A model generated the notes under the pieces. The model worked only from the letters and a program-made list of their open reading frames with translations, had not been told where the DNA came from and searched no databases. Source: Octopus vulgaris (taxonomy: Eukaryota). Taken from it: a stretch of 64,000 nucleotides of DNA. The translations under genes were made by a program, and so were the position numbers. How positions within the stretch are numbered: the first letter of the stretch is position 1; each line of letters begins with the position of its first letter. This document shows positions 255-57,292 of this stretch, one piece after another. The stretch lies in contig OX597832.1 of NCBI GenBank assembly GCA_951406725.2, forward strand, positions 30,318,001-30,382,000. Direction: 5' to 3'.

Positions 255-374
255 GCCTTTGTGAAGAACTTGCAGGATATTTCTATTAACAAAGAGAAAC
301 CTCCAATTCCACCTTTAGTGGTGATGACTTTGAATCTAAGAACTTTACCAAACCCCAAGACTCGAGAGAATGAG
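255..374 (+). CDS. POLA1: POLA1 exon (window exon 1): [10 protein letters not shown]...[22 protein letters not shown]
   Basis: tttcag acceptor, gtaaga donor, 120 nt. Confidence 0.92.
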
Positions 375-3300
375 GTAAGATACATTAAAGAAACAGGTGA
401 CATCCATGTGTTCTGTTTTAGACTTTTGTTAGAAAATTTTTTATCATTCAAATAATCTTTTTTCTTTCTTTCTAGAATTGCTGTCTTTAGTAGGAGATGG
501 TCATCTTCTCGCTGACCACTCAGTTGTGAAGAACAGCAACATTTTTTTTAATCAATCACTTATCCCTTTTCAAGTCTACCATGAAATTATATTGTGATAG
601 AACGGTCAATGAAACCCACAAGAGGACCCAGGCTCATTAAATCTATAAGTTAACAAAAGCATTCATCAATTTTAAATTGTTGCTAGTGACAACCTGTCCT
701 GTTTTTGTGGTACCGAGATACAAACTATGTGGCCTGAGGCTATTTGGTTAGAAGTGCCTTGGTTGTGAGCAGTGGGCAGCCCCAGTGGCAGTTGATAAAC
801 ATGGCCTCTCACATATTCAATCAGTTACCTCTAGTTCCCAGATCGTCAAACACAAACCATAATTTTACCATAATTACTGACCATCTCATTTATTCAGTTC
901 CACATTCTCAGAATGGCAATTCATTATTTAGAGTTAACCATTTTTTGTTACTTTGTTGAATTGTTTCACAGCCTCAGAAGGAGAGGAGTAGAAGATCACC
1001 CACCCCCATCATTCAAGAGATGGTGGCAGGGGTCATACTTTTATTGGGATATTTACAAACTGTATAGGACAACATAATGGTCATCTGAATGGTCACAACC
1101 ATTTGGAATTAACATTAATTAAAAGAATGGAAACATTGTTGCATTTTTGTTTAATAATTTGTTAATTAAAATCCAAAAATAGTTTTAGAAACATGAAGAG
1201 ACTGACTAATTGTATTTCTAATTTGTTAGATAATTGCTGCAGCTTATTTGGTTCAGAAATCATTTGGAATTGACAAACCTGCCCCAAAGACCCAATTCTT
1301 CAACGAACACCAATGTGGTAAGTAATTGCTGGATTTTCTTTAATTGGTAGATTAAATATCTTCTCATCAAAACCTTGACAGTACCACCAAAACTACTACC
1401 AGTACCCTCTCATGTTGTTGCTAGAAGATAGGCTAGCCTTTCAAGGAAGCCTCCTCGTGGTCACTCAAATTGCTAGAAATATCAACCCAAACCCCTTTAA
1501 TTCACACCCTGCTGTCTTAATATGAGGAGGCACATTGCATAATTTTGACTTAGATTCCCTGAAAAGTGTTTGATGTCTGCAGCAAGATTTCCTTTGATTA
1601 CAGACCGGCTCTCTCAGAGTTAAGTAGGGGTTAGATATCAACAACAGCAATGACCCTGCTCCCTTTATGACCATCTCTACCATATCAAACCCTGGTTATA
1701 CATGAAGTGGACTTATATGTTAGTTCAGTTGTGATATAGCTGAGTTATATGGTATCCTTTCGAAATTTGTCTTGCATTTCCCGACAAAATATTTTCAGTT
1801 CTTTTCGTTAAGCACAATCATCATCATCATCATTTAGAGTCCGTTTTTCCATGCTGGCATGGGTGGTTGGTTCGACTGGAGCTGGTAAGTGCCAGAGAGC
1901 TGCACCAGATTCCAGCCTGTTTTGGCTTGGTTTCTATGTCTGGATGCCCTTCCTAATGCCAACCACTACAAAACAAAATATTTTAACTTTTTTTTTTCAT
2001 ACAATTCCTAATTATCATTTGGTTCATATTTTCTTCAATGAAACACAAATTTAATCTCTTAAAATAACAAGTTGCTTTCATAGTTTCCTCTTCTCTTCCA
2101 GTAATCTCTCAACCAGCCAACTGCATCTTTCCATTTGAGTTTCGTGGTAAACTGCAAAAAACAGTAAGTTTAAACAACCGTAAATGAAAATAGAGCAATT
2201 TGCACAGATTTTATGTTCTTTTTTTCTCTTACTCCTTCAAAATTTAGATTTCTCTGTCAATTATAATGCTCATTTATTCATTTAAGAAAAAATTAATCAT
2301 GCATCATTTCAAAGCTTTGAAATTTCAATGATGTGATTGTTTATTTTTAGACTGCCATTGTCGAATGGGTTTGAGGGATTGGACCTGAACAGTTTGAACA
2401 GAAAACACAAGGTTTTGGCCGGATGCGGCTGGAGTAAATGCTAAAGGCTTAACCCTTTAGCATTCAGTCTAACCATTTCCAGTCCAAATATTCTGTTTTA
2501 TGTTCAAACTGGCCAGATTTGGGCTCTTACACCTACCCTACAATGTCAATCTATGCACAAACAATCACACCATCGAAATCTCAGATCTCCGAGATATTGT
2601 ATGATTAATACACTGCCATCATCATCATCATCATTGTTTAACGTCCGCTTTCCATGCTAGCATGGGTTGGACGATTTTGACTGAGGCTGGTGAACTAGAT
2701 GGCTGCACCAAGCTCCAGTCTGATCTGGCAGAGTTTCTACAGCTGGATGCCCTCCCTAATGCCAACCACTCCAAGAGTGTAGTGGGTGTTTTTACGTGCC
2801 ACTGGCACGAGGGGCAGTCGGGCGGTACTGGCAACAGCCATGCTCAATACACTTGACAGATTAATCTGAATGTTAAAGGGTCAATCATGCATTCATTCTC
2901 TCTCTCTCTCTCTCTCTCTCTCACAAAAGAAGAAAGACTATTCTGAAATGTTAAAACCTTGATTTTCCTTATTTCCAGCGAAAGGATCTAAAAGTGGAGG
3001 TGGTTCCAACCGAAAGAGCTCTTCTTGGATTCCTTTTGGCAAGGATTCATAAAGTAGACCCTGATGTCATTGTCGTAAGTTGATTGTAAATTTCCTTCTT
3101 TTCCCATAACATTTTCTCCTCACTCTTAACTGGAACGAGATGGTTACCCATTGAAGTGCCCAAGTTCCTCAGTCCAGCAGAGGTCTAAGTCAGCAAGAGA
3201 TAATTCAATAAGCCATAAACTTAAATGTTTGTTGTTGAGTCTTGAAGAAATGTCTGGTGTTTTATTAGACATGACCTTTCTTCAGAAAATGAACCATTAA

Positions 3301-56361: not shown

Positions 56362-56635
56362 TTTTGTATTTTGTTCAGTTTTCTGTTTTGGATTTCTCGA
56401 ATCTTTGTAATTAAATGCGAAATTTGGCAGGTAGAAAAATGTTAATGTAAATAAAAAAAAACAAAGAAACTCCCTTATCTTTCCATTTAGTTTTTGAACA
56501 AATATTAGTTAATCAATGGAATTAATGCAGTTATTTTCTCTAAATTTCACAGAATTTCGTTGTTATAAATTTAGTTGTAAATTTTACAATATTTTGTTGT
56601 TTTCTTTCTTGTTTTTTCCCCCAAATATTCGCCCC

Positions 56636-57292
56636 TTAATAAACAATACTGTTACATTTGCCATTAAGCCCGAGCCTAATTTCGTGTTCTCTGGCTCTCA
56701 TTCGAAGAGCAGCTATACTTGATGAACGTCTGTCAGCGTCAGCGAAACTTCCCGAGGTTACCGTCAGTCCTGCCGTGGTTGGCGGAGATTGTGACGCCGA
56801 TGTCGACTCTCCAGAACTAACGTTGTTGCTGGCAGGCGACCCGTTGCCGTTACTGTTGCCATCGCGGGTCTTTGCCGCCGTTGACGTCATACTTGCCAAA
56901 AGATGCTGGAAAGAGCCAGGAGGAGGTAAATGTGTGCTGAACGAAGGAAAAGATCTTATCTGAGACGATGACGTGGACGACAACCCCGCTGCTGCTGCTA
57001 ACGCCATAGGACTGTAAAACCCGGCTGCGGCGGCAGCAGCGGCAGCAGCAGCAGCAGCAGCTGCTGTTGGGGGTGAGAACTGTGGGTTCGCACCCTGGGC
57101 CGAGGCCAGAGTGTATCGACCAAGGATATGGTTTTCGTAGGATTTCATCAAGAGATCCGCATAACTTTGATGGCTGGGCAACACTCCAACGCGTCCAACA
57201 TTCAGATTATTGGAATAGGGGCCATAAAGATGGGATTGGGGACCGACCTTTTCTTTCTTGCGCCATTTTGCTCTGCGATTCTGGAACCAAAC
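56636..57292 (-). CDS. ARX: Terminal coding exon (218 aa) of an aristaless/ARX-like paired-class (Q50) homeobox gene
   Basis: ttgttcag|GTTTGG acceptor at the classic PRD-class Q|VWFQNRRAKWRK intron position. HD C-terminus KWRKKEKVG, 14-Ala tract, C-terminal OAR motif DRRSSSIAALRMRAREHE, TAA stop. Linkage to POLA1 supports ARX orthology. Confidence 0.88.
   Translation of the reverse strand, partial: VWFQNRRAKWRKKEKVGPQSHLYGPYSNNLNVGRVGVLPSHQSYADLLMKSYENHILGRYTLASAQGANPQFSPPTAAAAAAAAAAAAAAGFYSPMALAAAAGLSSTSSSQIRSFPSFSTHLPPPGSFQHLLASMTSTAAKTRDGNSNGNGSPASNNVSSGESTSASQSPPTTAGLTVTSGSFADADRRSSSIAALRMRAREHEIRLGLNGKCNSIVY

Follow-up and report, generated by a model that had tools for sequence, protein, structure and literature searches.

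The PCYT1-POLA1-Arx neighbourhood of Octopus vulgaris, probably of bilaterian age and perhaps only loosely held

Introduction

Does the adjacency of POLA1 and ARX, a textbook block of ultraconserved enhancers linked to human neurodevelopmental disease, date back to the bilaterian ancestor, and has gene regulation kept it together? The question is raised by a 64,000-nucleotide stretch of the Octopus vulgaris genome (positions 30318001-30382000 of contig OX597832.1, called C19 below, in a genome of 2.8 Gb and 227 contigs; hereafter the window), in which the 3' end of POLA1 faces that of a homeobox gene of the Arx type. The original prediction, made from the letters of this stretch, held that the linkage predates the split between protostomes and deuterostomes and is held by cis-regulatory constraint. 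We found that a third gene, PCYT1, lies beyond POLA1 and that octopus PCYT1-POLA1-Arx has the same order as human PCYT1B-POLA1-ARX. This third gene, a close linkage in abalones and a limpet and annelid block support the great age of the linkage, and the three genes very probably already adjoined in the last common ancestor of bilaterians. The proposed constraint was not demonstrated: POLA1 lacks the long introns expected of a regulatory bystander and at least three other molluscs appear to have lost the link. Coordinates beyond the window refer to C19.

Three genes in the human order

POLA1 was mapped with a database protein labelled Octopus vulgaris (1440 amino acids), identical to one exon in the window, which maps as 39 coding exons. 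Its coding start lies at C19:30299460, exons 1-15 precede the window, 24 of the 39 exons lie inside it and the stop codon occupies positions 23641-23643, exactly where the plus-strand gene had been predicted to end. The same exon is 94% identical to a protein labelled Argonauta, and one POLA1 exon searched against the genome returned a single match. For transcripts we used only the splice joints and extents of contigs from four runs of four studies, which we take to be RNA; in these, the spliced last exon continues into a 3' untranslated region (UTR) that reaches about 24377.

The observed/expected ratio of the dinucleotide CpG, followed over C19:30105001-30562000, is 0.3-0.5 in housekeeping gene bodies and about 0.8 in developmental-gene domains, with sharp borders, and the density of simple repeats tracks this pattern across the same interval. 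A second CpG-poor zone 5' of POLA1 pointed to further, hidden genes. Six minus-strand coding exons of PCYT1 were located at C19:30275842-30266184, head-to-head with POLA1; their identity as choline-phosphate cytidylyltransferase is given by the exon with the catalytic motif and a match to Pfam PF01467, their best PDB matches are CCT-alpha (E 1e-11 and 2e-17), and one exon searched against the genome gave a single match. CpG increases at C19 30296-30300 kb, adjoining the POLA1 start on its upstream side, which suggests that PCYT1 and POLA1 may share a promoter.

On the human side, published duplication coordinates give the order PCYT1B, POLA1, ARX, with exons 2-5 of ARX lying towards POLA1 and the terminal exon of POLA1 adjoining ARX (PMC8955779); human POLA1 and ARX are therefore convergent. 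We estimated how often such likenesses would arise by chance from assumed inputs (5,000-10,000 testable pairs, 10-30% of them on one octopus chromosome, 500-1000 genes per chromosome). These roughly predict 0.25-3 same-orientation pairs per genome and 0.0001-0.003 ordered, oriented triplets. The pair alone could thus be a coincidence at the level of a whole-genome scan, whereas the third gene in the same order makes inheritance compelling. Conserved ancestral microsynteny is defined by orthologous, unrelated genes that adjoin in distant phyla beyond chance, and this is what the locus presents.

The window itself reads as follows:
1..254, plus strand: end of POLA1 intron 15 (exon mapping)
255..23643, plus strand: POLA1 coding exons 16-39, amino acids 528-1440 and stop (protein mapping; single genome match)
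23644..24377, plus strand: POLA1 3' UTR, as far as the putative-RNA contigs extend (contigs)
24378..55845, no strand: intergenic gap of about 31 kb, candidate Arx 3' regulatory space (repeats, CpG, contigs, Pfam)
55846..56635, minus strand: Arx 3' UTR, whose end is estimated from the lengths of transcript contigs and may extend further (about 1446 and 1431 nucleotides precede the piece of the 46-nucleotide exon in contigs of two runs)
56636..57292, minus strand: Arx last coding exon with homeodomain helix 3, polyalanine, a conserved motif also present in other spiralian Arx, and OAR (open frame, alignment, Pfam)
57293..64000, minus strand: part of Arx intron 3, 17.85 kb long (spliced contigs)

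Identity of the homeobox gene

The predicted minus-strand homeobox/OAR exon ending at 56636 was recovered as an open last exon of 218 amino acids (57292-56636), which carries the last part of a homeodomain, a run of polyalanine and an OAR motif; the latter matches PF03826 with 34.7 bits, above the cut-off, at C19:30374681-30374734. The rest of the gene lies outside the window:
C19:30393190-30393145, minus strand: Arx 46-nucleotide exon (spliced contigs)
C19:30400546-30399843, minus strand: Arx exon 2, which carries the start codon and the first 31 residues of the homeodomain (spliced contigs)
ending at C19:30475657, 75.1 kb upstream, minus strand: Arx non-coding exon 1 (loose contig ends in two runs)

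Exon 2 is spliced to the 46-nucleotide exon over a GT-AG intron of 6652 nucleotides in all four putative RNA runs, and a loose contig end in one run reaches just into the start of the window exon. The gene spans 102 kb, with introns of 75 kb, 7 kb and 18 kb, and encodes a protein of 429 amino acids; simple repeats make up 21% of it. An extra intron after homeodomain residue 31 yields the 46-nucleotide exon, which may correspond to human ARX exon 3, although a literature search did not confirm this.

The homeodomain, of the paired (PRD) class with glutamine at position 50 (Q50), is identical at 57 of its 60 residues to four vertebrate ARX proteins, in support of the predicted ARX/aristaless identity, and at 59 of 60 to six spiralian Arx proteins; its best match among solved structures (PDB) is aristaless. 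Of the first 47 residues, 45 are shared with ARX and 42 with a second octopus Arx-like gene on contig C9, against 38, 37, 37 and 32 with the octopus genes that we take to be Alx-like, Hbn-like, Phox2-like and Rx-like, respectively. Used as sole query, the last exon retrieved 59 proteins, the top ones 33-45% identical over almost its whole length, and most of the named ones are Arx or aristaless.

An error of orthology, in which the gene would belong to another PRD-class family or itself be the second Arx-like paralogue, has to be weighed against these identities, and the trees give it some room. In homeodomain trees of 47 and 78 columns, sampled without Pph13 and Drgx and with outgroup labels that we assumed, only 5 of 37 and 5 of 21 inner branches were starred. 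Of the families named for a phylogeny in the original prediction, grouping with Rx and Hbn was rejected by the approximately unbiased (AU) test (0.0099 and 0.029), grouping with Alx (0.33) or Phox2 (0.28) was not, and an Arx clade was neither recovered nor rejected (0.11). Since the trees lack resolution, the assignment rests on the identities, on the resemblance of the C-terminal part and on the presence of a distinct Alx-like gene on contig C15. The second Arx-like homeobox (C9:38146964-38147101) has neither the intron at residue 31 nor an OAR match nearby. Judged from its sequence, the homeobox gene of the window is almost certainly Arx.

Homeodomains resembling the C9 gene are present in many metagenome loci, and this gene is probably a widespread paralogue. 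The octopus Arx frame has no evident N-terminal octapeptide, an accessory feature of vertebrate-type ARX that several mollusc Arx proteins display; this motif may be missing from members of the aristaless-type family. The polyalanine run, 14 residues encoded by GCN repeats at 57023-57064 of the window, is absent at this place from the other aligned proteins. Polyalanine tracts are a feature of human ARX as well, and the two are probably convergent.

The gap and the assembly join

That no other host gene stands between POLA1 and Arx agrees with our search of the gap of about 31 kb, in which we scanned with Pfam 150 of the 268 stop-to-stop frames of at least 55 amino acids, leaving out 76 of low complexity and the 42 shortest. 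Three of the 150 frames had matches, and the only one above the cut-off (38697-39041) was rejected as a gene, being a frame of CA repeat and short interspersed element (SINE). The putative RNA contigs cover 23400-43000, and beyond POLA1 the contig pieces listed there include no long spliced one and are short and mostly repeat-like. A small or poorly conserved gene may lie in the gap. Microsatellites make up 18% of it and SINE-like repeats are also present. At the 3' end of POLA1 the CpG ratio jumps from 0.41 in the gene, which is depleted as far as this end and contains 2.9% simple repeat, to 0.84 in the undepleted gap, which is unlike a methylated housekeeping gene body; gap and Arx gene, at 0.81-0.84, are alike.

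A false join would also bring POLA1 and Arx together artificially, and the join across the gap is carried by the assembly without bridging by independent reads. Against such an artefact, N is absent from the window and from the 224 kb that include it, and the genes are linked in abalones too. Taken together, a wrong orthologue or a false join is a highly improbable source of the observed order.

Linkage in other species

The survey of POLA1 neighbours proposed with the original prediction gave a divided answer among the 11 other molluscs that have both proteins on record: Arx and POLA1 are closely linked in three, all abalones, share only a chromosome in two and lie on different scaffolds in six. 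In Haliotis asinina both are on the same 83-Mb sequence with accessions 4 apart, in H. cracherodii on the same 63-Mb sequence with accessions 14 apart, and in H. rufescens on one scaffold of 2.12 Mb; the three count as one lineage. In Babylonia and Littorina the genes share a chromosome with accession gaps of 376 and 123-783, which are no proof of non-adjacency, as the accessions of two POLA1 models in Littorina already differ by 660. The genes lie on different scaffolds in Bulinus (8.7 and 9.7 Mb), Nucella (1.4 and 4.9 Mb) and Saccostrea echinata (53 and 17 Mb), where a scaffold break by chance has a probability of roughly less than 5%, so that these are probably real breaks of the linkage. 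Candidula, Elysia marginata and S. cucullata were set aside, their scaffolds being different but short and uninformative. Metagenome loci with Arx were also tried, and none of the 80 kept had a POLA1 match; they are uninformative because they are short and mostly Alx-like or of the second Arx-like paralogue.

Published block tables extend the comparison. In the limpet Lottia, a cholinephosphate cytidylyltransferase directly adjoins a B-family polymerase (PMC4085046, supplement file 4), which would be POLA1, as would that of the corresponding block in the annelid Capitella. A homeobox-OAR gene stands near PF07850 (ATP6AP2) in Lottia, Capitella and amphioxus, probably as a Shox-ATP6AP2 pair, and none of the 13 OAR places in the table, whose blocks as seen have at least three genes and whose ARX family is unassigned, includes a DNA polymerase (PMC4085046).

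These data bear on the view that vertebrates and molluscs each brought together, on their own, genes that had shared an ancestral chromosome. Such a coincidence would be eased by the placing of POLA, PCYT1, ATP6AP2 and SHOX in one ancestral linkage group (PMC4085046, file 7), and would fit both the few same-orientation pairs expected per genome and the 8 of 11 other molluscs without close linkage. It would have to produce a third gene in the same order and is opposed by the independent abalone, limpet and annelid data, so that we regard it as very improbable.

Is the linkage held by regulatory constraint?

Arx and POLA1 combine a developmental regulator with a non-developmental bystander, as expected of a genomic regulatory block. 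If the block were of bilaterian age, Arx enhancers would lie in or against the 3' introns of POLA1 in octopus too, and separation of the genes would be selected against. The convergent layout is that of human, where ARX enhancers are mostly 3' of the gene (PMC8955779) and uc467 is located in the last POLA1 intron (PMC1964772); the pair was kept through the coleoid reorganisation; and a Sepia Arx, which may be either paralogue, is expressed in the frontal and vertical lobes and the stellate ganglia (PMC4186843), which fits a conserved neural role but is silent on linkage. Irimia 2012 gives four predictions for such blocks: a developmental regulator beside a non-developmental bystander, long introns of the bystander, conserved non-coding elements within these introns, and bystander enhancers that act on the promoter of the target (PMC3514665). 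POLA1 departs from the second: the 23 introns in the window measure about 0.13-1.9 kb (those at the 3' end 0.7-1.9 kb), and among all 38 the longest is 5.4 kb and none exceeds 10 kb. The original prediction, which gave all POLA1 introns as under 2 kb, was right for those in the window, although two upstream ones reach 2.9 and 5.4 kb. With introns this short, the POLA1 body depleted of CpG up to its 3' end and probable breaks in three molluscs, we consider active constraint of the bystander type in octopus doubtful, the odds being against it, although a true block with compact enhancers in the introns is a serious rival.

We favour another account, to which we give a probability of about 0.55. 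PCYT1, POLA1 and Arx would have been neighbours already in the bilaterian ancestor and would be only loosely held in molluscs. The Arx regulatory domain would take in the introns of Arx together with the 31-kb gap and end at the 3' end of POLA1, where we read the step in repeats and CpG as its border. POLA1 would be a constitutively transcribed border neighbour and not a host of enhancers, likely sharing a divergent promoter region with PCYT1. The linkage would persist since harmless break sites are few, while staying breakable: with enhancers outside POLA1, a break just past this gene would be harmless but offers a small target, which would fit a linkage that lasts long and is lost now and then. 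Vertebrates would later have elaborated the old adjacency into their locked block, in which POLA1 contains ultraconserved enhancers.

Several points weigh against this account. Short introns can still contain enhancers, CpG depletion reflects methylation only indirectly, and three genes kept in order in human and octopus are easier to explain with real constraint. The six PCYT1 exons stop short of its 5' end, the shared promoter is putative, and the strand of human PCYT1B is our assumption. The other species were compared through scaffold sizes and accession numbers, not read sequence, and for the abalones these measures give closeness, not adjacency or orientation; outside vertebrates, the comparison of Arx with POLA1 covers molluscs alone. 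In Capitella, four genes separate the cytidylyltransferase from the B-family polymerase (PMC4085046).

The wider neighbourhood

The order on C19, with 30235001-30238000 left out, is Shox-like (plus), ATP6AP2 (minus), PCYT1 (minus), POLA1 (plus), Arx (minus). ATP6AP2 extends from C19:30220238 to at least 30249280, and the homeobox-OAR gene that we take to be Shox-like (C19:30110824-30191343) lies tail-to-tail with it; between ATP6AP2 and PCYT1 is what is presumably a hAT-like transposon remnant. We assume that human SHOX and ATP6AP2 are located on Xp and that PDK is the next human gene past PCYT1B; a PDK linkage to the octopus block was rejected, the PF10436 matches being on contigs C16 and C17. 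On the other side, a serpin exon at C19:30561438-30561998, about 85 kb past Arx exon 1, was the first gene clearly recognised on the 5' side of Arx, the intervening stretch lying outside the Pfam scan.

A bolder and rather unlikely proposal is that the vertebrate ultraconserved-enhancer locus of ARX derives from a bilaterian PCYT1-POLA1-Arx block, perhaps within a longer Shox-ATP6AP2-PCYT1-POLA1-Arx neighbourhood, with forebrain/cerebral-ganglion enhancers of Arx already 3' of the gene against POLA1 and with octopus enhancers functionally equivalent without sequence similarity. If this were true, the locus would let one test directly how ultraconservation comes about on top of an older regulatory arrangement. 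Apart from this proposal, a gene order that predates the vertebrates would mean that their enhancers were built on an existing adjacency. Octopus and abalone, in which the genes are still linked, would form a natural comparison with oyster and some snails, in which the link is apparently lost, for whether linkage or enhancers came first.

Other homeobox genes were noticed in the genome. Genes that we take to be Hbn-like (plus) and Rx-like (minus) are convergent within 230 kb at C15:47391432-47620933, whereas the gene taken to be Otp-like is on contig C2, which leaves a partial Hbn-Rx-Otp cluster. At C17:30959563-30962664, one open frame of 2196 amino acids with four homeodomain matches belongs to a zinc-finger homeobox-type gene or similar, and a further homeobox run lies on C17 at 70-78 Mb.

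Comparison with known systems

Ancient microsynteny is a known class, and PCYT1-POLA1-Arx of octopus was not found in print. Judged from listings, with the Irimia pair list and two large Simakov 2013 files outside the scope, there is no published report of Arx-POLA1 or the trio outside vertebrates. The trio terms gave no report in the main texts of PMC4729200, PMC9023564, PMC13508932, PMC13652810, PMC13317027 and PMC5728398, nor did Arx-POLA1 or the trio appear in the supplements of the first three. In PMC9023564, Arx is absent from the main text and ARX, POLA1 and PCYT1 from the supplements, whose tables may use other identifiers; Arx and Pola have no match in the main text of Irimia 2012, whose supplementary pair list may include them (PMC3514665).

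Irimia 2012 describes 595 conserved pairs of unrelated genes that are adjacent across phyla, as in octopus; its co-regulated 5'-5' pairs resemble PCYT1-POLA1 and its pairs of developmental gene and bystander resemble Arx-POLA1 (PMC3514665). Unlike that of those pairs, the presence of the octopus locus in further lineages is read from accessions, scaffolds and block tables and not from sequence. In Simakov 2013, blocks 5658/5659 and 4108/4109/5578/5579 contain cytidylyltransferase-polymerase and OAR plus PF07850 pairs that match the octopus neighbours; its polymerase block is classed as lophotrochozoan only, without a human partner or homeobox gene, and the two blocks, adjoining in octopus, are 1.9 Mb apart on one Lottia scaffold (PMC4085046). 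The octopus locus is also like the ancient local linkages that outlasted the cephalopod genome reorganisation in Schmidbaur 2022 (PMC9023564). Its survival, to which the original prediction attached weight, is real but not rare in itself, 275 metazoan microsyntenies being kept in Euprymna (PMC9023564).

The closest known system is the vertebrate ARX-POLA1 regulatory block (uc467; VISTA hs119, hs121, hs122 and hs123), which has the same convergent genes with PCYT1 beyond POLA1. Octopus differs from it in a POLA1 of 42 kb with short introns, in an Arx without an evident octapeptide, and in non-coding space that lies mostly in the Arx introns and the gap.

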